Virus record (IMG/VR): IMGVR_UViG_3300005676_000020
Span: 32,001-96,000 of that record
Reading direction: 5' to 3' (one strand)
Origin: a virus
DNA: 64,000 nt
The first letter of the stretch is position 1. Each line of letters opens with the position of its first letter. Below are positions 1,001 through 29,196 of the stretch, one piece after another. Made by a program: the position numbers and the translations under genes. The notes under the pieces are model-generated. The model made no database searches. It worked only from the letters and a program-made list of their open reading frames with translations, and had not been told where the DNA came from.

Positions 1001-4000
1001 TGGCGAATACGTGTTCAATACTCCGTAATAAAGAGACAGGTGAGATAGAGAAAGTACTGGCCCCAAATGGTCAGGAAAGTATCTTATGGAAAAGTCTCAT
1101 AAGCATAGGGGAGCTTTCTATCAATAAAGAAGATACTTTACGTACCTGGGCGGTTGCCTATACAACAGGGTTTAAAAATGAATTTGGAGACTGGGAGCTT
1201 TTCCAGAAGGCCAGGGAGCTGTCAGGTTCTATAGAAAAAGCTTTCTACAGAGACCTTTTTGAAAATGAACCAGAACAGTTCCTGTTTGAAATGGCTCAAC
1301 AGCTCCGGTCGTCTGATATAGAAGCCCAGGCTGCCAGAAATGTAATGGGCAACGACCTTGCTCAGATAGCTCTACAGTTGTTCCCAAACTCCGTAGTAGG
1401 TTCAAAATACACACCTCAGTTTACCGGTAAGGTAGACAGTAATGGTGAACCTTTATTAGAACATGTTGTCTCTCCCCCAGGTCTCCCTTGGTTTGAAGAC
1501 GCTATACCCTACACTCAAAATTTTGAGGAAATACAGTTCCCGGACCTTGCCAAATACGATGACGAAATCATGCAGCAACTGCCGGTTAAGGTTGGAGCTA
1601 AAAAGCAAGTGATAAAGATAAAGGGGTTGGATGTCACCGAGATGAAAGCCAAACGACCTAAAGAAAAAAAGGCTGTATTTATAGATTCAGACACCTTCCA
1701 GGATATAGGTAAGTTTATAAAAGACGGACCTAAGGACCCTACTGACTTCCGTCATGACATTATACGAATAGGTAATAACATATATGTAAAATCCGGTGAC
1801 AACCTGGCATTCAAGCAGTTTTATCCCTTCCTGGACTTTTCCAAGAAATATAAGGTACGGGGCCGAACCTTTTACTATCTCACCAATAACTTTGTCTACT
1901 CCCCCGGTTCAAGTATCGGCGCTTCCAGGGAGTACAGTATCATGAAAGCCAGGGCTATTAAACAGGGTAAGTTTGGTATAAAACCTATAAAAACAAAACC
2001 CAGGTTGACTAAGAGGGCGAAAGAGGCCATAGAAGCATTTATAGAAAAGAAGAGGAGTTATATACCTTTGATAAAGGAGGAAATAGAAAAGTTTGTTTAT
2101 CAAGTAGATAAGTCCCGACAATCCGCTTCTGACCATTTAAGGTCGATAGCTAACTCATACGAGTCACTGATGGACCCTTCACATAAGGAGGAGTATATAA
2201 AGATATTAGAAAGCCGGTTTCTTAGACAGACCGAAGAGTTTTTTAAAACATATGAGGGTGATGACGGAGAGGATATGATAAAGTCGACAATGAGCACTCT
2301 ATCAAACTATCTTCAAAAATTACCGGCACTGGTATTGTTTAATATGGTACATGACCAACCTGTCTCTGAGTTCTCAGCAATGGAATCTGAGATAGATGAT
2401 GAATTTTCTGAGTTCATATATAGATTTTCTGTTAGTTCAGTCATACCAGAATCGTTTATTTCCGGAGAAAATGGAAGGAGGATAAGTTTAAAAAGTATAT
2501 TTGATACGGTAAATGTAGAAATATTCAGCGACCGGGGCTTACGTGAGAAGTTGACCGCTGACGAAATTATGAAAATATCCAAGTCAGGTATCTTCAGAAA
2601 AGTCGACACGAGTAATTTGAAAAGGACAAAGGCGTTAGCTGTATTTTTGGAAGTTTATGACAGACACGGTCATGTTGCAGCTAATACTTTTTGGTCTGCG
2701 TATCGTAAAAATATAAATACTGCTTCTGCCGAAATCATTCAGAAATATTTTAATAAAAATAAGGGTAGAGAGGAAGATTACAACTCTATAATGGATGATA
2801 TAAGAGATACCCTAAAGGGTGTGGATAAATACTCAGGAGCTTATGTAGATAGTGAGTCTATCGAATACCGAACTTGGTTTTCTAGAATAAGTTCCAGCTT
2901 TGTCCCATTGATCGATATAGCCGAAGGTATATATAAATCAGCTTCTGGGTCCGTAGAACTTCACATACTAAACCGGATGTTGTTAGAAGTTCCTGAACTA
3001 GGTGACGACCCTTACCAAAGATTTAGAAAAATTGTTGACCTAATATTTACCAATGAAGAAGACTTATCAGAAGAAGATAGGTCGGTGTTAGAATATCTCA
3101 AAACTACAAAGGCTAAATCTTTGTTTAACAATATATTGAGAGCTTTCCGTGAGCTACTGAGATTTATCATATACGGTCCAGATTTCCAGTCACGTTCTGC
3201 ATTTGAGGCGTTAAGTGCACAAATGGATAAAGTACATGAATATCTTGCCGGCAGGAATACTGTTTTTTCACTTCAAATCGGAACTGGTGAGCGAAAGGAA
3301 GAAATTGTTGTTAACGATCAAGTAGTAGAGATTAAAAATACGGAAGACCGTGTGAGATATGGGATTTCATCTAATATTGAAGTTGACACTGATGAGAATG
3401 GTGTTTCTGAAACGCTTCTTGAAAGATTTCCGGAAGGCTCTACTCTTCAATATGTTCGGGTGCTTGAGGCTCCTAATCTTAAATCAGTGCCGGTAGATTT
3501 CCGGTTCCCTCATCAGCTCCAAAAATTTATTGCCCCCAATCTAAGCATTCAGGATATACCAGAAGGAGAGTTTAAGTCTTTCCTGTTAAATGAAATGCGT
3601 TATGTTAAGTTAAAGGATTATGAAAAGGAGAGGCTTCGTGAAAAAGGAGGTCTCGGTATGATTTTTAACATTTCATCAGCTGTTTCTAAGTTATACACTT
3701 CCGGTAAACCTAAGTATTCATTTGAGCATAAGGCTCTTTTAAAAACAAATCTAGGTGTCGGGTCTTTACCTATGTACACTCTTGGGGAAAACGGTAGCGT
3801 GTTCAATATCGAATTTGGAGCCGGGGCAAATTCTCCTTTTCCAGAAAGTCTTTATGAAAGATTTAGACTTGACCACGGTCTCAGAAAGTTGTATATAGAT
3901 AAACCTATTGGATGGTTCGGTGGGGTTTATTCAGTAGAAAATAAGACTATATCTGTTACTGAGGTTCAGTCAGACCTTTTACAAAGGTCAAAGACTATCG

Positions 4001-7000
4001 GCGAACTTAGGTCTAAGGTAGAAAATTACTATGACGGTTGGCTTTATGTTTTTACCGGAACTGCAATCAATTTGCTCCTAAATTACTATGAGGATGTAAC
4101 TCATATAAGAATACCGACCTCAGAAACTTACAAAAAGTTCAAAAAAGAAAGTCCTTCTCAATATTATGACAAGATAGCTTCTGTATTCCCGACAACTTTA
4201 TCAGAAGACGGCCGCTGGCATGTTATAAAAGTATCGGATATTTTTGGTAAAATCAGTCCAGATAAAAAATCCCAGTTTGATTTTATGATAAAAGCGGGTG
4301 TCAGAGCTGGGGTTAAGGAGCAAAAAGAGATAACACCAGACCTTCAATCTGACAGGGATAATGCAATGGACATATTGGAAAGTTTAAAAGAAAGTGAGAT
4401 TCTTGGTTCTTACCTGAAAAGCTCCCCTGACCATGTGAGTGAAATAGAAAAATGGATTGAGAGGGAGTTCTCTAATGAGAAACCTATGACCGATGATACT
4501 AAAGGAGGAGAGCTTGTTGGACCGGATGGCGAGGTGATTGAAGAGGATGAAGGTTATGAAGAGACAGATATGGACCGGTTAGTAAGAGAGACAGCTGCTA
4601 ATAAAAAAAGAGAGTATGTTTTCGATCTCGACTGGGCTTTAGATGAGTTGTCTGCGGCTATGAAAAATAACGATACTGCAAGGGTGAATTTTATAAAAAG
4701 GCTTTTGGAAGAACACACGTCAGGTAAAATAAACTTCAACCGTTCTTCTTCAGGTAATTACAAACAAATACTGTCTCTAGATAACCAAAAGATTTTTGAA
4801 GAGCTTATTGCAAAAGGACTTATTACTGAGCGGCGCTGGAATGGTATGTACTTTGTTCCAAAGCAATACCGGGAGCCGTTCAGGAGACCTCCGTTCAGCT
4901 ATCTCAAAAAAGACTTTCGTGATGGTCACTTCCTTGACAAGAACAAGTACGAAGAGTTAAAGGCTATCATAGAGGTTCGTGGACTCAGTTGGCTTGATGT
5001 CAGACCTTCTAATTCAGGAGACTCTTATGTTGTAAGAATATTTCCTACCAGACAAGAGTCTATGCAGACTCGTCTCCATGAGTTTGCTGGCAAAGATGCA
5101 TTCATAAAGATTGCTGACCGCCTGTCTAAGCGACTAGGAGTTCCTTATAAGATTATTGATGCTGAACAGGCCCTGAAGATAACAGAGGACTCACAGATAC
5201 CTTGGAATGGTGAAGGGGCCTTTGCCTATAAAGGTACTGTATATGTTCTGCAGGAAGCGTTGTCTCTGGAGAATGCCGTACACGAATTCTCTCACTTCTT
5301 CATCGAAGCTGTCTCCAAAGAGTCTCCTTACCTGTTCTCAAAACTCTATAAGCAGTTAAAAGATGATCCTTATACCCGGGAGAGATACCTTGACCTGGTA
5401 GAAAGACTATACCCTGACCTATCTGAAGAAGATAAGGTCAAAGAGGTTATGGTTAGGGCGTTAACTGACAAAGCCCTGGGTCTCATAGATGAGCGTGGAA
5501 ATGTTATCTTAGAGGCTATCCGTAAGATTTTCAGAACTCTCGCTAATATCATCCGTACTCTGTTCGGAGTTAGTGTTAAGAACCTGAACGAAAACACCAC
5601 ATTAGACCAGCTGGCAGCAATACTTCTCGGAGAGAATGATGGTGAAGTCCTAGACCTTGGCGACCGTAACACAGGCTTCTTTATGAACCTGTTTCCGATG
5701 TTCAACCGGGACATTGCCAACCAACTGGAAAAGCTTACCGGCTCTACTGTAAAAAGTAGTATAGACTCATTCTTTACTGTTACAGATGCCCACTATCAAA
5801 GGCTTCGTCAGGATAAGGACCTGGAAAAGCTGAAAGAGATACTCAGTAACCAAAAGGGTACTACTCTCGTATCAGATGAGCGTCAGATACTTATGAGAGC
5901 TGCAGACTTTGCCAGAACCCTGGAGGAGAATATGAAAGTCGACCGTGCCGCTCTTATCACCTTTGCAGAGGCTATTGAGGGTCAGGAGGTTATAGCTAAG
6001 AAGATGGCCGATCACGTAGCTTCTGTCGTAACCGATAAGGATATGTCCACTCAGGAAAAGCTGGCTATATTCCGTAAATATAGTTTCATAACCAAAGAGT
6101 GGACTACTGTCGTAGACCTTTTCATGAAGGCTATCAAGGACTCTCCTGTGGGCCGTGGAAGAAATCCCTTGAGCGATTCTATCCAAAACATGATATCAGA
6201 CTATAAGTTTATTGACAACAAGATAAAGGATTTTTACAAAGAGGACGGTCTGCCATCATTGTTCAGAGAAGAGATAGAGGGGAACATCTACTATCAGGCG
6301 GCGATGAAAGAACAGGAGGACAGGATAAAAGAACTGGAAGAAGCCTACAAAAAGGATAAAAACCCGGCTATAAAGAAAAAACTAGACAAGGAGCGCGGAC
6401 TCTTAGAGAGATATAAGCTTACCGACGAAACCCTTGCCAAGTACTTATCAGGTGAGATGGGCGATACCAATCACTATTCAATGTACCTGGAAAGCTACAC
6501 CTCCAATCCAGATCCGATTGTTGGTCACTTCGCTAACTGGTTCATGAAGCACAAGTTCCGTGCTCAGTCAAGAGCTCAGCAGCGCATGACAGCCTTCGAG
6601 AACAAAATCTCAAAGATTTACAAGAAACTAGGCTACAAGCCAAAGGACTTCCAGAAAGTATCAGAGAACCTGGTACAGATAGAGACCTTCTTTGACGGCT
6701 ACCGTAACTTCAAAGGGGAAGAAAGAAAAGCCTGGACGTTCATAAACCAGTATGGTGACGATGCCAACGGCGTCGGCTGGCAGTTTGAATATAACCGTCT
6801 TCTCCAGGAAAGGGAAAGTGCCAAGCAACGGATGCACTCCCCTCTCCGGGCTCCCGGCTATGAGAATATGACCGGTGAAGAAGAGTATCGCCGTAAGAAC
6901 CAGGCCTTTGAGCAGTTTAAGCTTGACTATATGTTTGATGAGGAAGCTGATGTAATCAAAGAAGCAAGGCTTTTCTGGTTCCGTGACGCAAACACCCATA

Positions 7001-10365: not shown

Positions 10366-10369
10366 TTTC

Positions 10370-10597
10370 TCATATTTTATGTGTTTCCTGCAGATACAGC
10401 TCTAGCATAGTAAGCAGAAATTCCCTAGCCTGAATCTGACTTCTGAAATATAGAACCTCGGCTTTGAACCCGTATTCCTCGCATATCAACCTTACCCCTC
10501 TCGGAGGTACTCCCGCTTGCTGACCTCCTTTCGGAGCTTCGGGGAACCGTTCGAACCTTACAGTGTTTAATATGTGTTCTGGTAGCATAGTTGTCAT
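10370..10597 (-). CDS. Hypothetical protein, about 75 aa (start MTTMLPEH)
   Basis: ORF with ATG after A-rich leader; last gene of the minus block. Confidence 0.55.
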   Translation of the reverse strand: MTTMLPEHILNTVRFERFPEAPKGGQQAGVPPRGVRLICEEYGFKAEVLYFRSQIQAREFLLTMLELYLQETHKI

Positions 10598-10609
10598 TTT
10601 AAAAAAAAA

Positions 10610-10671
10610 GCGGCGGCAGGGGTCAAGACCTGCGTAACTTCCCAAAGGGTGCGCCAACCTCGCTTCGCCGC
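10610..10671 (-). other. Degenerate tRNA-like cloverleaf followed by U-tract (tRNA remnant or terminator)
   Basis: GCGGCG/CGCCGC closing stem, GCG/CGC D-like arm, GCAGG/CCTGC T-like arm, stunted anticodon arm, T9 downstream. Confidence 0.4.
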
Positions 10672-10703
10672 TATAACTCCAAAAACAAACGTCAGAAAAA
10701 GCT

Positions 10704-11315
10704 TTATAACAATCTCAGCACCTTGATTGAACCTCCTGTGATTTTCGGAAAGACGTCCCATCCGCCAGGGGCTTGATCTGCGGGAATTCTATCCATCTCC
10801 ACTTGTACATCAAACACTCTGGGTTGAGGTAGCAGTTTGTTTATAAGATATTTGAATGCTTTGCCCTTTTCTGCGCCATACTCATTTCTCATCTTTACCT
10901 CATTGAGTTGTTCAGAGTTAATAGAATCCAGGATGTGAATTACATCCTCTTCATTGAACCTCTTCTCATTAAGAGACTGTGCTGTTTTAAAACCTTCGAG
11001 GAAACCGCAATATGCATAGTCATCGAAGTCATTTACTGCATACTCAGCCGCCAACTCCTCAACATCAACCCATCCAATCTTCTTACAATCTTCTTCTGAT
11101 AAAGCAGAGAAGTCTACTGAAGGTAGTTCAGGAATACCTGCTATAATTTTCTTTTGGTTTCTTTCATCAATGTCGTTGAGGTTATCCACTTGCCAAATTG
11201 TCCATTCACCTGTAGTTAGTTTCTCTGCTACATGGTACGGGAAAATGTCTCGTACATCTGGTTCATAACTAACCAGTATCGGCTGTGGTAACATCATTAT
11301 CAATTGTATATTCAT
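10704..11315 (-). CDS. Hypothetical phage protein
   Basis: ORF; likely start MNIQL. Confidence 0.65.
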   Translation of the reverse strand: MNIQLIMMLPQPILVSYEPDVRDIFPYHVAEKLTTGEWTIWQVDNLNDIDERNQKKIIAGIPELPSVDFSALSEEDCKKIGWVDVEELAAEYAVNDFDDYAYCGFLEGFKTAQSLNEKRFNEEDVIHILDSINSEQLNEVKMRNEYGAEKGKAFKYLINKLLPQPRVFDVQVEMDRIPADQAPGGWDVFPKITGGSIKVLRLL

Positions 11316-11597
11316 AGTCTTTTTTTTATTTAGCACCCTCTTGTCTTATATTGTATGTTTAAGCTCAACGCTCTATACACCTTTATAAGAGTAGGGTCAC
11401 GTAGTTAATAGCAGTTAATTACTCTGCATTTATACTCCAATAAAGCAGTAACATTAACTACTTGCTGAGAACTTGTTCATGTTGTAGAGGTAAGTTGCTG
11501 AAGCGACTCTCTTAGCACTCCTTTCTCAAGGGAACAACACGCTACGTCTTACAACGTATATCCAATTTTTAAAGTGGTTTTCGACATTCAGTCCACT

Positions 11598-11629
11598 ATT
11601 GTTTATTCAAACAATATTTTGTATATTTG
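11598..11629 (+). promoter_or_regulatory. Bacteroidota sigma70-type promoter (ATTG-N20-TATATTTG) for GIY-YIG gene
   Basis: TATATTTG at 11622-11629, ATG after a 4-nt spacer. Confidence 0.7.
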
Positions 11630-11633
11630 TAAT

Positions 11634-12173
11634 ATGAACTCTGGCATTTACAAGATAACTAATACTGTAACAGGAGATTTTTATATTGGTTCCTCATGTC
11701 AATTAAACAGACGTAGGAGAAATCATTTTATATCTCTTGAAAGAAACATTAGTCATTCAAAAATATTACAAAGAGCATATAACAAATATGGTAAAGATAA
11801 TTTGTTTTTTGAAGTATTAGCTATATGTCCAAAAGAATATCTACTAAAACTTGAACAATGGTTTATTAATGAACTTAAACCAAAGTACAACATTTGTAAT
11901 ATAAATCCAAATACAACGGAAGGATATAATCATACTAATGAAGATAAAGCAAAAATGAGACAAATAAAATTATCTCAAAATGCTGTAAAATTATATCAGT
12001 ATAATGATAATCAACAACTTATAAAAGTCTGGGATTGTTGTAATGATTATGCTAACTATTACAAAGTATCACCAGCAGCTTTACATAAAGCATGTAGAAA
12101 GGGTCAGAAATGTGCAGGTTTCAAAGTATCTAAAACACCTATTCACCTGCACGATTTCAGTAACCCTCGTTGA
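11634..12173 (+). CDS. GIY-YIG homing endonuclease with probable NUMOD-type C-terminal DNA-binding region
   Basis: SGIYKITN...FYIGSS, LQRAYNKYG, EQWFI, P.YN; AT-rich; opposite strand to its neighbours. Confidence 0.9.
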   Translation: MNSGIYKITNTVTGDFYIGSSCQLNRRRRNHFISLERNISHSKILQRAYNKYGKDNLFFEVLAICPKEYLLKLEQWFINELKPKYNICNINPNTTEGYNHTNEDKAKMRQIKLSQNAVKLYQYNDNQQLIKVWDCCNDYANYYKVSPAALHKACRKGQKCAGFKVSKTPIHLHDFSNPR

Positions 12174-12526
12174 CTTCTTAGTGTGTTGTATTCTTTAAGA
12201 GATTAGCAGCCTCACTGTTCGTAATACCCTCATTGAATTGTACTATCAGTATGTCAACTACGCCCAGTTTATGGATTATCCCGGGCGAAAATCTATTGTG
12301 TTTGGTAGCCGACCTTTCCGCACCTTATCTAACCCCTGATAGCATCTGCATCACTCGGATTAGGGGCTGACCAATAACACGGTACATTTATGGTCATTTA
12401 ACGGATGGGCTTTAAGCGTCTATAAACCCGGACATCTTACCGCCTAAGCGTCCTGTACCACCTCACACAATAGAGTTTTACTGACATCTTGCTGATCCGC
12501 CCCATGTCAGTCTCTTCATATATAAT

Positions 12527-12559
12527 AAAAAACCCCTCCGGAGAGGGGTCTGTTTTTTT
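12527..12559. terminator. Bidirectional intrinsic terminator after RNR
   Basis: ACCCCTC/GAGGGGT stem flanked by A- and T-tracts. Confidence 0.8.
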
Positions 12560-12570
12560 CAAAGTTGATT

Positions 12571-15500
12571 TTAAGAACCGCATACACCGCCTTTGGTAAG
12601 GTCGCATATGTCAAAGAATTCTTCTTCAAACTCCTGCCCTACAGACAGGATAGCTTCCTTGTATGGTACTGGGGTAAGAGGTTGTCCTCCCCTTGCACCA
12701 TCCGGGTAGCAGGTGAACCCACGAAGTCTGTGAGCGTACTTAGCCAGTACTTTGGCGAAGTTTACTATCTCACCTTCGTTGTTCAGGTCACTACCCCAGG
12801 CCGGTAGATTTATCGTAGAACTAATTGACATGTCAACGTAGTCCTGTAAGTCTGCCTGGAACTTTATCCTTCTTTCGTAATCTGATGCAAGGTCGAGAGC
12901 TGTCTCAATCTTGTCAGGGTTTATTCCGAAGTGGTCTATCATTATTCTCGCCGTACCGTCTACGACGTACTGATATACCCACTGACTTCTTCCTTTTAAA
13001 TATCTCCTCTTATAAGCAACTGCTATCAGAGGTTCTGCACTTGTCGTGGTACCGGCCAGGATGCCAATGCTTCCTGTTGGCGCTATGGCCCTGTTAGCTA
13101 CCGGGCGGCTTATTCCAAGCCTGTCAGAGAACGTTCTTGACACATAGTCGGAGTGGTTCTTGTATACTGTCATCCACTCACGGAGTTCGTCTGTCATCTC
13201 GTACTTGTAGTTGCGCTTAAGCAACCACTCGTGAAGACCCATGAGGCCTAATCCTATCCTCCGGTTCTTCTCTCTCACCTTATATACTTTCTCGTAGGGT
13301 AAGTCGGCTACCATCGTCCCGCATATGAGGAACTTCATGGCGAGCTCAACCACTTCTACAAGCTCTTTTTTGCTTTCTATATTGGCAAAGTTCAAGCTGC
13401 CAAGGTTGCATACGTCACTGTCGTCTTCAGAAGTAACCTCTGTACAATTGGATATAACCACCCCTTCGGCCATGAAAGAGTGCTCCTCAACCTTAACGTC
13501 GCAGCAGTATACATCCTGAACTTCTCCAAGAGACAAATCTGTGATTTTGATGCTGCTTTTGCGGTAAGCTTCGTGGTTCTTGACTTTGAGACGGAAAGTT
13601 GGAATCATTTCTGCAAACTTGCCAATATACGATCCCATCACGTTTAAGAAGTAGCATTCCCCTTCTCCAGTATACCCACTTTTTCCACTCCTGTAGATGT
13701 TGGACAGGATGCCGTAGCTTTCCAGAGATCTCCGAACACCTTGTAAAAAATCGTAGTGTTTGGAACAGAGTCTCACCCTATGTTGTTTGTCACAGTAGCT
13801 ACCGTCAGAGTCGAAAAGGCCTGCCAAGAAGCTAGTATTTGTGAGATTATAAGGAAATTGATCTTTTGCCAACCCCAGGAAGGTTTGAGAAGGGACATAC
13901 ATTCTAGTATAACCTCTTGGTGTCAAAGGATTTATTGATCTGAACAGTGTTTGGTCCATCCGGGTTAAGCACTGCTTCTTTTCATCATTACATAGCGACA
14001 GTTCAGCCCCACCATCTTTTCTGAAACTTCCGTCACCGTATATAAACCCTAAGGTGTATGAGTGTTCATCGAACTTCTCCGGATTGCTTTCAGGAAGGGA
14101 TGTATGAACAACATCTCCGATTTTCAGATCCTTTGCTTTAACTCTTTGTATTTCTGCAAGTTTTCGACGATGTCCTTTCCCAGAATATCTTTCAATAAGA
14201 AATTCGTGGTCAAAGTCAGCCTCTATTTCCCTACCGCCGGTCATCTCTACCATAATAGTGTTGACGCTAGACTTCGTTTTGACAAATCTGGTCTTGGCCC
14301 ACCGTTTGCCTGTCCAAACCTCTACTTCTTTTCCTAAGGTGTCTGATATCTGTTTATACCCCTGATTGGTCAGTATCCAAGTTTTTGCACTGACCGGAGC
14401 ATTCCTTAGCGTCTCCTTCTCTTTTTCGTAGAAGTTGAAGCTGAAACCGGGTTCTCCTGTACTAAGTGCCTGTTTAGCGTTCTCGAGGAACACGCTGCCC
14501 ATGTCTCCGGTTCTCTTATAGTTCTCCAGCCATTCAGTATCGTAGTTCACTGAAATATTGGTCATGTCCAGAGGCGCTGGAAAGTTAAAGTCCTTCTCTT
14601 TGAGGTCACCTATGGTAAGGTCTGTTCCAGATACTTTCATATTGTACCAGTCCTTAGCATGTATAAACTCGTGGACGTCAACGTGTTTCCAATTCAGGCT
14701 GGCGTAAATAGCTGAGCGCCTTGAGCCTCCCTGCATCACCTCCCTGCCAATCTCGTTAATCATCTTCATCTTTGGAACAGGCCCAGATGCCAGTCCCCCG
14801 GTTCTGTTAATAACCGAATTCTTAGGTCTGTACACGGAGTAGTCAGAACCTATACCTCCACCTGTCATTAGACAGGACTCCGCCTTCCAGGAGAGGTTAG
14901 CCCAGTCTTCCCGGGAGTCATTCTCACATTTCAGCAGGAAACAGTTATAAGTGTCTATTCCACCATCAATTACAAACCTTTGGTGTACAGGCTCGTACGG
15001 GCAATAAACTTCATCTTCTCCACAAAACTCAATCTTTACAACTTTAAAACCGTAGAAGTTTTCACCCTCTTGGAAGTTCTGCATGAAGATTTCATGTCCT
15101 TCATAAACCTTACCTCCTAAGTCTACGTCCCTGGTTTGGGATCTAAGTTCCCCAGTTATCACTAACCCAGCAAAAGCCGCATGTTTCCTAAACCACTCCA
15201 GGTTTTCTTTCTTTACAGAGAAAAGTTTTCCAGCGCCACCATCGGCAGCTATCCAACCACGTATGAAGGAGGCTATATACTCCACAGATTTGTTTTCTGG
15301 AAGCTCTTTCCATTTCTCTTTTTTATAGCCAAAATATAAGCAAGGGTCTCCATTTGCCGAATCCGGGTAAGTCACTGTACCCTCTGAGGATAAAAGTTCA
15401 AGATACTTTTTATCCTTCTCTGCACAAAGTCTTAGTTGACCGTTCCTGTTCCCGTCCCCAAAAACAAATCCGTGAGCGAATCCTGCGCTGTCAAACCCTG

Positions 15501-16029
15501 CAGAGAATGTATTAGCAGGTACGACGTCACCAACTCTAAGATCGTAGGTATCGGAGCCGTCTATTAACGGCCAGTGGTGAGTTCTGGTGGCTTTGACTTC
15601 CCAAGTATGGTTCTGGTGACCTCTGAAAGAACAAAATGTTATTCTGTTCAATGCTTGTTTTCCATGATTGTGGAATGTTGCCGGGTAATAATTGCCGTCC
15701 ACGGGGGATAGTACATTTAACGTCTTCCCCACCGAAGATTTTAAACTTACCCAACCACTATCTGTCAAAACGTTGGTATCTCCAGACAAACAGTTGTTAA
15801 AGGCTTTAAAAGGCCTTCCTGCGTAGTAAAGGTACCTGCCACCAGGTATGAACTTCATCTCTGTAATAAGGAGTTTAAGGTGCTCCTTTTCACCCCGGGA
15901 CATTTTATCCCGACAAACGTCTTCTACTAGGACATCGGCTAGCTTATCCCATGTCTCACAACCCTCATGTCTGTACTTGTGGTTGAAAATATCTTCTCCA
16001 AACTTGTTCCTAAAGAAAGATTTCTGCAT
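12571..16029 (-). CDS. nrdJ: Class II (B12-dependent) ribonucleotide reductase with two inteins; 552 aa after splicing
   Basis: FIPGGR, NN|C, GEPG, NA|CTE, VCNLGS, IGLGLMG, APTGS, C-terminal Cys pair; no beta subunit nearby. Confidence 0.9.
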   Translation of the reverse strand: MQKSFFRNKFGEDIFNHKYRHEGCETWDKLADVLVEDVCRDKMSRGEKEHLKLLITEMKFIPGGRYLYYAGRPFKAFNNCLSGDTNVLTDSGWVSLKSSVGKTLNVLSPVDGNYYPATFHNHGKQALNRITFCSFRGHQNHTWEVKATRTHHWPLIDGSDTYDLRVGDVVPANTFSAGFDSAGFAHGFVFGDGNRNGQLRLCAEKDKKYLELLSSEGTVTYPDSANGDPCLYFGYKKEKWKELPENKSVEYIASFIRGWIAADGGAGKLFSVKKENLEWFRKHAAFAGLVITGELRSQTRDVDLGGKVYEGHEIFMQNFQEGENFYGFKVVKIEFCGEDEVYCPYEPVHQRFVIDGGIDTYNCFLLKCENDSREDWANLSWKAESCLMTGGGIGSDYSVYRPKNSVINRTGGLASGPVPKMKMINEIGREVMQGGSRRSAIYASLNWKHVDVHEFIHAKDWYNMKVSGTDLTIGDLKEKDFNFPAPLDMTNISVNYDTEWLENYKRTGDMGSVFLENAKQALSTGEPGFSFNFYEKEKETLRNAPVSAKTWILTNQGYKQISDTLGKEVEVWTGKRWAKTRFVKTKSSVNTIMVEMTGGREIEADFDHEFLIERYSGKGHRRKLAEIQRVKAKDLKIGDVVHTSLPESNPEKFDEHSYTLGFIYGDGSFRKDGGAELSLCNDEKKQCLTRMDQTLFRSINPLTPRGYTRMYVPSQTFLGLAKDQFPYNLTNTSFLAGLFDSDGSYCDKQHRVRLCSKHYDFLQGVRRSLESYGILSNIYRSGKSGYTGEGECYFLNVMGSYIGKFAEMIPTFRLKVKNHEAYRKSSIKITDLSLGEVQDVYCCDVKVEEHSFMAEGVVISNCTEVTSEDDSDVCNLGSLNFANIESKKELVEVVELAMKFLICGTMVADLPYEKVYKVREKNRRIGLGLMGLHEWLLKRNYKYEMTDELREWMTVYKNHSDYVSRTFSDRLGISRPVANRAIAPTGSIGILAGTTTSAEPLIAVAYKRRYLKGRSQWVYQYVVDGTARIMIDHFGINPDKIETALDLASDYERRIKFQADLQDYVDMSISSTINLPAWGSDLNNEGEIVNFAKVLAKYAHRLRGFTCYPDGARGGQPLTPVPYKEAILSVGQEFEEEFFDICDLTKGGVCGS
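13447..14397 (-). mobile_element. Intein 2 (317 aa), Pro1, probable class 3, with LAGLIDADG endonuclease
   Basis: NA|PVSAKTWILT...VYC...VISN|CTE; GFIYGDG and LAGLFDSDG motifs. Confidence 0.85.
14944..15792 (-). mobile_element. Intein 1 (283 aa) with LAGLIDADG endonuclease
   Basis: CLSGDT...TRTHHW...VYC...DTYN|C; GFVFGDG and GWIAADG motifs. Confidence 0.9.
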
Positions 16030-28237: not shown

Positions 28238-29196
28238 ATAACTTGTAACGATTTTAAACATTCTTGAACCTTGGACAGACCATGAACCCTGACCATTTCG
28301 GCAAAGTCTTTCTGTTCGCAAGGGAATATGCCTGTAAAGCCAAACTCCTCACATACTTCCTGAGAAGCTCTAGCCCCGGGAATGTCACTGTCAAAAGCCA
28401 CGAATATCGAGCCTCTTGACTGACCTTTCAGCCAGGTGACAGTATCTACAGAAAACGCATGAACCGACTCATTTTGAACGCTGCAGGTGTAAGGATATAG
28501 TAGCTTAAGGCACATCTTATCCTTTTTTGATTTAGTTACTATTATGCTTCGACATTTTGGTATGTCAAAGACCCCGTCTGCAACCTTTAACGGCACGTTA
28601 GAGACCCATTTTCTGGAACCGGTCTCCAATGGCCTGTATATCTTCCAGTATTTATCCTCGTAAAGATAGGCGAAAACCATCTCGTTAGAGCTCATCGGAA
28701 CTTCCGAACGGTTTATGTACCATTTATCCACCGCGAATACTTTCTCTGTACTCAGTTCTGGCAGACCCTGGTAATAAGAACCCCAGTACTCTAACTCACT
28801 CTTGTAAAAATTCCTAGGCTTAACCTGTATGAGAACCTCACTTTTAGGCCTCTCCTCATACTTTACCGGCTCTCTGTCTTGCCGGCTATCTACGGCAAAG
28901 TCGTTGACTATTTTAATCAAAGCTTGCCTGAATGTCATATTGAACATCTGCATTACAAGGTCAAAGCAGTCCCCGGAGTGTTCTTTTACGACAAAGTCGT
29001 AGTGATGAATCCGGTCGCCGTCTTGCCCCATAACAAACGAAGGGTTACGGTCCTTCCTTAACGGGGAACGTATAGCCTTGTCTAACTTAAAATCTTTTCC
29101 TACATAATACCTGTATATCTCCAGTGGAGATACCTTCCTCAAAACATCTTCTTTTGTAAGGAAAATCGTTGCATCCTTCCTTCTTTCAAGGTTCAT
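28234..29196 (-). CDS. DNA primase (TOPRIM), crAss-like
   Basis: SPLRKDRNPSF, GDCF, KIYRP, VTKSKKD, FDSD..G, KDFAE. Confidence 0.88.
   Translation of the reverse strand: MNLERRKDATIFLTKEDVLRKVSPLEIYRYYVGKDFKLDKAIRSPLRKDRNPSFVMGQDGDRIHHYDFVVKEHSGDCFDLVMQMFNMTFRQALIKIVNDFAVDSRQDREPVKYEERPKSEVLIQVKPRNFYKSELEYWGSYYQGLPELSTEKVFAVDKWYINRSEVPMSSNEMVFAYLYEDKYWKIYRPLETGSRKWVSNVPLKVADGVFDIPKCRSIIVTKSKKDKMCLKLLYPYTCSVQNESVHAFSVDTVTWLKGQSRGSIFVAFDSDIPGARASQEVCEEFGFTGIFPCEQKDFAEMVRVHGLSKVQECLKSLQVI

Follow-up and report, generated by a model that had tools for sequence, protein, structure and literature searches.

A free-standing GIY-YIG homing endonuclease gene probably inserted antisense into a structured-RNA locus of a phage

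The window, by which we mean the whole stretch of 64,000 nucleotides that was analysed, is part of a 142-kb virus record. From position 10370 onward nearly all of its genes lie on the minus strand (Table 1). Between the gene of a 210-aa protein and an intein-bearing ribonucleotide reductase gene there is a stretch of 1.2 kb with a single long open reading frame (ORF), open from 11574 to 12173 on the plus strand. Structured sequence of the opposite strand lies on both sides of this ORF: a left arm, hereafter motif D, and a right arm made up of a block named B3 and modules B and A. Searches of public phage records with the region (blastn and megablast) returned no match, and neither did a PHROGs search with a neighbouring protein of 3121 aa. 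When the 210-aa neighbour was used as a marker, the single-protein search was empty and the profile search found three distant loci, none with a non-coding gap upstream. Neither similarity to the arms nor synteny was detected at 80 ribonucleotide-reductase loci. The nearest relative, L082, with 67% identity in the 3121-aa protein, is devoid of the entire 2.2-kb block 10366-12570, and therefore says nothing on the insertion.

Table 1 Features at and around the endonuclease locus, in window coordinates
Feature	Position	Strand	Remarks
Small GGQ-motif release-factor-like gene	10370-10657		
210-aa gene	10704-11336	minus	Left neighbour of the 1.2-kb stretch
Motif D (left arm)	11330-11565	minus	Structured RNA element, widely conserved
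P4 and terminal AGAGGGUGCUAA of motif D	11330-11397	minus	Window-like form; ends just before the gene
P3 of motif D	about 11398-11462	minus	Optional helix, window-like form
UUCUCAG of motif D	11465-11471	minus	Complementary to UUGAGAA of the core loop
P1 3' strand of motif D	11478-11485	minus	ACAACACG, pairs with the start of the core
P2 of motif D		minus	Variable hairpin after the core
Invariant core of motif D	11519-11541	minus	CGUGUUGU-UUCC-CUUGAGAAA-GGAA
H0 of motif D	11543-11558	minus	Hairpin with GNRA loop
Segment without counterpart in endonuclease-free alleles	11543-12152		610 nt, 27.7% GC; from joints and alignment stops
A/U-rich hairpin TATTGTTT/AAACAATA	11597-11618		8 bp, loop of 4; between the promoter elements
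TATATTTG box, TAnnTTTG pattern	11621-11628	plus	5 nt before the ATG; TTG at 11598-11600, 20 nt upstream of the box
GIY-YIG homing endonuclease ORF	11634-12173	plus	179 aa, intact; likely start is the ATG at 11634
Block B3, 5' part (RNA sense ..UCAACGAGGGUUACUGAAAUC)	12153-12176	minus	On the plus strand, endonuclease codons 174-179 and stop
Module B	12243-12277	minus	Hairpin CGCCCGG/CUGGGCG, AUAAUCCAUAAA-type loop, then UAGUUGAC
Module A	12278-12480	minus	Large 5' domain of the right arm
Two-way terminator-like hairpin	12530-12551	both	After the ribonucleotide reductase gene; terminator scan
Ribonucleotide reductase gene	12571-16029	minus	Intein-bearing; right neighbour of the 1.2-kb stretch

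The product of the ORF provided insights into the nature of this gene. A preliminary description of this DNA had recognised an antisense GIY-YIG endonuclease, and the Pfam GIY-YIG domain (PF01541) indeed matched residues 3-86 with 32.1 bits against a cut-off of 22.6 (E 1.4e-7). The catalytic domain of I-TevI (1MK0/1LN0) aligned to residues 1-91 at E 1e-10, and equivalents of all six I-TevI residues Y6, Y17, R27, H31, E75 and N90 are kept. PHROG 314, annotated as homing endonuclease, covered residues 1-177 (E 6e-24). No Pfam family matched residues 92-179 at E 0.01; this C-terminal part displays a NUMOD3-like GYNHTNEDK motif, as judged by eye, and an HTH-like end, and PF07453 is present in the precomputed annotation of relatives at 48-51% identity. 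The protein resembles I-TevI, which is encoded in the td group I intron of T4, in its catalytic domain, its length and a two-part build of catalytic domain, linker and putative DNA-binding end, but no intron surrounds the gene here. The endonuclease is an ordinary member of a well-known family, and its gene is present in a single copy in the genome. The GC content in 200-nt windows is 24-27% over the ORF region and 40-50% in the flanks, which agrees with the AT-rich insert described before. The 610-nt segment has 27.7% GC, as against 38-43% in the arms and 43% in the window.

Motif D is found far beyond this genome. An exact 20-mer of its core (11522-11541) occurs in 49 viral contigs and in three contigs of metagenome-assembled genomes (MAGs). 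These loci have the same order of elements, which in the minus-strand sense of the window is hairpin H0, the core, a variable hairpin, ACAACACG and UUCUCAG. All six pairs of H0 change on both sides, 95.8% of cells are paired as against 31-47% when the partners are slid, and in 500 shuffles neither the covariation score nor the percentage of paired cells came up to the observed value. P3 and P4 have closing helices whose sequence varies from locus to locus without loss of pairing, and the G-U pairs of motif D exist on the minus strand only. UUCUCAG and the UUGAGAA of the core loop are both invariant, and these two strands may form a pseudoknot. In other phages motif D lies on the same strand as the adjoining tRNA genes, often in tRNA clusters, and in several of them it starts 2-3 nt after a tRNA. 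A covariance model (R1) built from 29 motif D loci scored 80.6 bits at 11464-11565, the only copy in the genome. Motif D is clearly a real structured RNA, as opposed to a DNA repeat or a decayed gene.

No Rfam family matched either arm, with both strands and short stretches searched and even at E 10. Likenesses noticed by eye to RNase P, a group I intron, tmRNA, an HDV-like or theta ribozyme and a T-box were considered and rejected; none had an Rfam match, and either the order of elements or the variable parts were wrong. When the literature was searched with the core sequence, the only results were chance hits to 16S rRNA and one unrelated paper. Contigs from the RNA library of run X15 contain motif D at high depth; contigs say nothing on transcription, strand or level, and these were left out of the argument.

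Meanwhile, conservation of the right arm is limited to close relatives. In the window it retains the 5' part of B3, a conserved block of 26 nt, UCAACGAGGGUUACUGAAAUCCCUGAA. Positions 12153-12176 are identical in three loci without the endonuclease gene (L218, L219 and L220) and have one change in L100/L127; in L100 and L127 this one-base variant of B3 occurs alone, with the motif D core 174 nt downstream. In the endonuclease-free loci B3 displays GAAAUC and then CCCUGAA, which can close an AGGG/CCCU hairpin, while in the window GAAAUC runs into the antisense end of the endonuclease ORF. The hairpin of module B has compensatory changes in L218 and L219 (CACUCAG/CUGAGUG) and a G-U pair in L220, and the series of hairpin with conserved loop, UAGUUGA, variable insert and B3 recurs in all three. 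Module A was seen in two loci only, the window and L220, and positions 4211-4439 of the latter are an 84% identical counterpart of the right arm (12253-12483), including an identical stretch of 57 nt. The minus strand of 12174-12530 folds at a z-score of -3.05. A 20-mer from the most conserved part of the right arm had no match in viral contigs; a 20-mer match in L221 lies inside a bacterial gene and is due to chance.

Uninterrupted homologues of the locus exist, as the preliminary description had expected. The alleles free of the endonuclease gene are L218, L219, L220 and L100/L127, together with contigs of four sludge runs in which the flanks are joined. In L218, L220 and L100/L127 an intact B3 is followed by a spacer and then by H0 and the core; L219 ends at the contig edge just after B3. 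The spacers measure approximately 80 nt in L218, 105 nt in L220 and 150 nt in L100, and contain neither an ORF nor an endonuclease gene. They are poorly conserved between loci and have short words after B3 in common, such as ACUGU and CGUAAGG. Overall, the spacer of empty alleles is approximately 100-150 nt, as against 610 nt (11543-12152) in the window. The real empty junction reads GGGTTACTGAAATC up to the joint and CCTGAAA after it. This differs from the junction that had been predicted, CGTGCAGGTGAATAGTGGACTG, which had no match in 2.9 million viral contigs. A gapped pattern from the core to B3 within 31 nt likewise had no match in metagenome contigs; the real spacers are approximately 100 nt or longer.

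Parts of the stretch were present in 20 sequencing runs, all of them from sludge, bioreactors, wastewater or soil. We compared contigs from three DNA runs and one RNA run, belonging to four studies, and these were read only where they cover the stretch. All four runs had both gene-bearing contigs and contigs joining 11487 or 11542 to 12153, so that filled and empty alleles coexist in the same sludge communities. In run X4 one joining contig (2971 nt) extends over part of the 210-aa gene, the GGQ-motif gene and the end of the 3121-aa gene, indicating that it represents this phage lineage in its insert-free state. In run X2 a contig is approximately 99% identical to the window over 11519-12176 only, and both of its flanks are unlike the window; the similarity breaks at 11519, where motif D has its variable hairpin, and at 12173-12176, where the variable insert of module B lies. 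The gene is therefore polymorphic for presence and absence at one site among related genomes. Alignment coordinates and protein tails suggest that it occupies the same site in other lineages. All gene-bearing alleles have one H0 sequence and all empty alleles another, which fits co-conversion of the flank and also simple divergence of lineages.

These alleles also defined the borders of the insert. Similarity to L218 and L220 ends at 11542 and restarts exactly at 12153, which puts the right border at 12152/12153 and not at 12139-12143 as previously proposed. The left border lies somewhere from 11543 to about 11633, a range only, because the spacers are too diverged for alignment. The window keeps H0 and, upstream of it, A/U-rich sequence resembling the 3' end of other spacers, hence the foreign DNA begins between 11543 and the ORF. 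The border formerly set at 11596-11600 falls within this range, which permits no closer placement. The segment without counterpart contains the ORF through codon 173 and 91 nt upstream of it, including the allele's own version of H0. Codon 174 begins at 12153, and the RNA gene therefore contributes the TGA and the final six codons of the ORF. Both the stop codon (12171-12173) and these six codons lie in sequence common to the alleles without the endonuclease gene, where the match with the window begins again at 12153, so the earlier placement of the stop codon within the RNA arm was correct. The insert had also been described as bounded by a CTATT repeat. Both copies are present (11596-11600 and 12139-12143), but the boundary zones have eight different 5-mers in common and 99% of shuffles have at least one; the repeat is due to chance and does not mark the borders.

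The region just upstream of the ATG was informative as well. The TATATTTG box and the TTG upstream of it form a probable promoter, whose mRNA would be leaderless or nearly so. Bacteroidota promoters have TAnnTTTG as their -7 box. The arrangement TAnnTTTG-N4-6-ATG also precedes the resident genes starting at 29196, 30755, 20524 and 39919, and at the first of these the box comes directly after a terminator-like hairpin. It precedes a 61%-identical homologue of the endonuclease in L138 as well. Across the window TAnnTTTG is not enriched, with 47 occurrences seen against 52 expected. In the preliminary description the gene had its own promoter overlapping a hairpin; the promoter-like box stands, and the hairpin is real yet weak (-4.4 kcal/mol, z about -2), since 8 of 200 shuffles fold as well.

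Database relatives of the protein carry traces of the same flank. Protein clusters at 91% and 85% identity, with 23 and 5 members, have the same length and retain the tail HLHDF(S/I)NPR that derives from the flank; its I variant corresponds to the C-to-A change of the B3 block in L100. Relatives at 62% identity or less stop approximately 7 residues earlier. Two cluster members have a different tail, one reads through the stop codon, and two database ORFs consist of the C-terminal 72 residues only, as expected of decaying copies. Motif D was not found beside relatives of the endonuclease at any of 80 viral loci. Conversely, this endonuclease was absent from all 49 motif D loci in viral contigs, as well as from L218-L220 and L222-L224. 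The association between the two is so far limited to sludge populations.

Based on these findings, we postulate, with a probability of about 75%, that a free-standing GIY-YIG homing endonuclease gene of the Seg type invaded a composite structured-RNA locus of the phage. The intact locus of endonuclease-free relatives carries, in the minus-strand sense of the window, optional modules A and B, the 26-nt B3, a poorly conserved spacer and motif D. The cassette, on the opposite strand, would have cut B3 after GAAAUC and replaced most of the spacer, bringing along a promoter-like TAnnTTTG box of the type used by resident genes. It seems to have come without a stop codon of its own, and would read six codons into the RNA gene and use the TGA there. 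The gene appears to be free-standing, as suggested by the lack of a match to intron models and by the box placed before its ATG as in resident genes.

The enzyme would cut endonuclease-free alleles in or beside conserved sequence of the RNA gene. By analogy with SegB of phage T4, the cut most likely falls at one of two candidate places, either the B3 junction of the intact block, which would be destroyed by the insertion, or the H0/core region. In a mixed infection, repair from an endonuclease-bearing genome would then copy the cassette together with its flanks. The hairpin at 12530-12551, if used on the plus strand, would terminate a transcript of the endonuclease gene extending antisense through modules B and A. 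With 610 nt of antisense sequence between them, motif D and the 5' modules would either act as separate pieces or tolerate the insert. The read-through variant, the different tails and the ORFs reduced to the C-terminus are signs of the life cycle of such a gene.

The closest documented case is SegB, a GIY-YIG enzyme encoded in the tRNA gene cluster of T4, whose recognition site includes a conserved tRNA-gene motif and whose flanks are co-inherited (PMC2330249). In both cases an intron-less GIY-YIG gene sits among stable-RNA genes of a phage, and relatives without the gene exist. Nevertheless, the neighbour here is an unclassified structured RNA instead of tRNAs, and the gene is antisense, cuts a conserved block and borrows its last six codons and stop codon from it. 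Homing endonuclease genes are also carried by the group I introns that interrupt rRNA and tRNA genes (PMC3984707). There too a selfish endonuclease gene occupies a conserved RNA gene, but splicing makes it harmless, whereas the gene of the window is antisense and displays no sign of an intron.

The nature of the invaded locus admits two readings. According to the first, to which we give somewhat less than an even chance, two independent RNA genes or elements, namely B3 with the 5' modules and motif D, flank an intergenic spacer that holds the cassette, and nothing but the 3' edge of B3 is interrupted. Motif D occurs in other phages as an independent, self-contained element, conservation of the spacer is poor, and the content of modules A and B differs between loci, all of which argue for two elements. 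Against this, B3 always has motif D downstream and never occurs alone in a complete locus, and the words ACUGU and CGUAAGG recur in the spacers after B3.

According to the second reading, which we regard as rather doubtful, both arms belong to one RNA that is transcribed through the insert and still folds, with the endonuclease gene in a dispensable loop. The order of B3 and motif D is fixed, with 97-174 nt between them, in five endonuclease-free loci (L218, L220, L100, L127 and the contig-cut L219). The spacers, inspected by eye, have no ORF and no terminator-like or promoter-like site, and the loci are non-coding gaps of 630-1200 nt in otherwise gene-dense contigs. The arrangement also recalls the large ornate RNAs GOLLD and ROOL, which lie near tRNA islands, are likewise large non-coding structured phage loci, and have two domains and a variable linker accepting foreign inserts; tRNAs have been reported within the linker between the two domains of GOLLD RNAs (PMC12286853). 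The Rfam models of GOLLD and ROOL, at E up to 10, matched neither the arms of the window nor the uninterrupted locus of L220, while GOLLD as a positive control scored 275-317 bits in L105 and L137 in the same kind of search. This resemblance is one of architecture only, the frequent presence of motif D in tRNA clusters included.

Several observations speak against a single RNA. Most of the 49 viral contigs have motif D without B3 or any sequence like the right arm, and the copies that closely follow a tRNA point in the same direction. Independent occurrence of the arms, which the preliminary description had named as evidence against its own proposal, is thus half borne out. Module A occurs in two loci only. 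Conserved long-range pairing of one arm with the other is lacking: inverted repeats I3 and I23, the candidates in the window, are missing from L218, L219 and L220 and were rejected. Moreover, the insertion did not fill a variable loop, since it cuts the conserved 26-nt B3 at the 5' side of a linker of approximately 100-150 nt between two modules, takes away half of this block and replaces the greater part of the linker. The preliminary description was right in kind and overstated the target as a loop of one RNA.

It is improbable that the endonuclease gene is ancestral at this site and that the empty alleles are deletions. The C-terminal-only ORFs show that decay happens, but the empty alleles have an intact 26-nt B3, conserved spacer words and no scar, and occur in unrelated genome contexts, and the GC content of the cassette is foreign to the locus. 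That the gene is borne by a group I intron, like I-TevI, is very improbable: despite the I-TevI-like catalytic domain and the label of group I intron endonuclease that some database relatives bear from their source, group I and group II models had no match on either strand at E up to 10, no plus-strand gene is interrupted, and the ORF is antisense to the sole transcribed structure around it. This is in line with the intron-less, homing-type gene antisense to a conserved structured RNA locus that had been described at the outset.

An extension of the invasion of the RNA locus by a free-standing gene is more speculative, and we consider it unlikely as a whole. The endonuclease and the RNA may form a travelling pair, in which the enzyme recognises an invariant block of a new modular class of phage RNA (motif D, in at least 49 viral contigs and absent from Rfam) and, by co-conversion of the flanks, moves versions of the 5' hairpin and linker of this RNA between otherwise unrelated phages. 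The mRNA, if it reached the terminator at 12532-12549, would be a perfect antisense of approximately 360 nt to the 5' domain of the RNA. If so, phages carrying the gene would have, in place of one long RNA molecule, a separate motif D and a silenced or duplexed 5' domain.

The interest of the invasion of this locus by a homing endonuclease gene lies in its target, a widespread and unclassified phage RNA motif, and in the coexistence of the alleles. Free-standing homing endonucleases are known beside conserved protein and tRNA genes, while here the neighbour is a large structured non-coding RNA locus. The filled allele, a natural insertion mutant, shows a place at which this RNA can be interrupted, and draws attention to a conserved phage RNA motif not assigned to any family. 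Such an endonuclease would target the kind of sequence represented by the 26-nt B3 and by the core of motif D with its 24 invariant nucleotides. If the cleavage site lies in the core or in B3, the distribution of the RNA could readily be probed with the enzyme, whose activity would be one explanation for the presence of the same RNA modules in unrelated phage genomes.

Motif D, the structured RNA element that forms the left arm of the RNA locus, carries an invariant 24-nt core and was found in at least 49 viral contigs, for which tRNA clusters are a frequent setting. No Rfam family was found for this conserved element. Two forms can be told apart: the short form is flanked by tRNA genes, while the long form ends in AGAGGGUGCUAA and is directly followed by a protein gene. 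Genes for tRNA-Met are frequent near motif D loci.

Within motif D, the end of the core (GAGAAAGGAGUGCUAA) resembles the end of the motif itself (GACAAGAGGGUGCUAA), and several other loci also carry the sequence GUGCUAA, in their variable hairpin. A rearranged core was observed in L220, one of the endonuclease-free alleles. Here, the 5′ strand of P1 is followed by an insert of about 150 nt, and then by a hairpin with a UUGAGA-bearing loop and swapped stem strands (GGAA...UUCC), placed directly before the 3′ strand of P1. This arrangement was not detected by model R1, the covariance model built from 29 motif D loci.

Several tRNA-cluster loci (L089, L105, L109, L111, and L126) displayed tRNA-model matches of 106-156 nt, with normal acceptor, D and T arms and long inserts in the anticodon/variable region. 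The acceptor AGUCAGG/CCUGACU occurs repeatedly among them, and several were not called by ARAGORN.

Coordinates of motif D, associated elements, and promoter-like boxes
Feature	Location	Strand	Remark
Motif D	window 11330-11565	-	also in loci L089-L137, L218, L222, L224
Core end vs motif end	window 11512-11527 vs 11330-11345	-	
Rearranged core	L220:4640-4800		
Long tRNA-model matches	L105:1034-1139; L109:3101-3256		examples
Match to motif D 3′ end	L138:2456-2473	-	13 nt, identical
ORF with zinc-finger-like start	L109 ~2700-2920	-	CRYCGNEF...HEVYC
Gene starts with TAnnTTTG box	29196, 30755, 20524, 39919	-	
TAnnTTTG box and start	11621-11636		same arrangement as the four starts in the row before

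In a different phage (L138), a 13-nt identity with the 3′ end of motif D (AAGACAAGAGGGT) is separated by about 30 nt from the beginning of the endonuclease homologue of 61% identity; nothing else of motif D was detected at this locus. In L109, a short-form motif D is followed at a distance of about 70 nt by an ORF whose zinc-finger-like start is typical of HNH-type homing endonucleases.

The nearest relative among those found (L082:9812-12732, compared with window 10366-16029) lacks an entire 2.2-kb block comprising the GGQ-motif gene, the 210-aa gene, both RNA arms, and the endonuclease. A 139-aa ORF occupies this place, and the ribonucleotide reductase of L082 is without the second intein, which the window has at 13447-14397.

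Several window genes are preceded by a TAnnTTTG box, and at 29196 box and gene start together come immediately behind a terminator-like hairpin. This arrangement, with 4-6 nt between box and start, suggests leaderless or near-leaderless transcripts from predicted Bacteroidota-type promoters.
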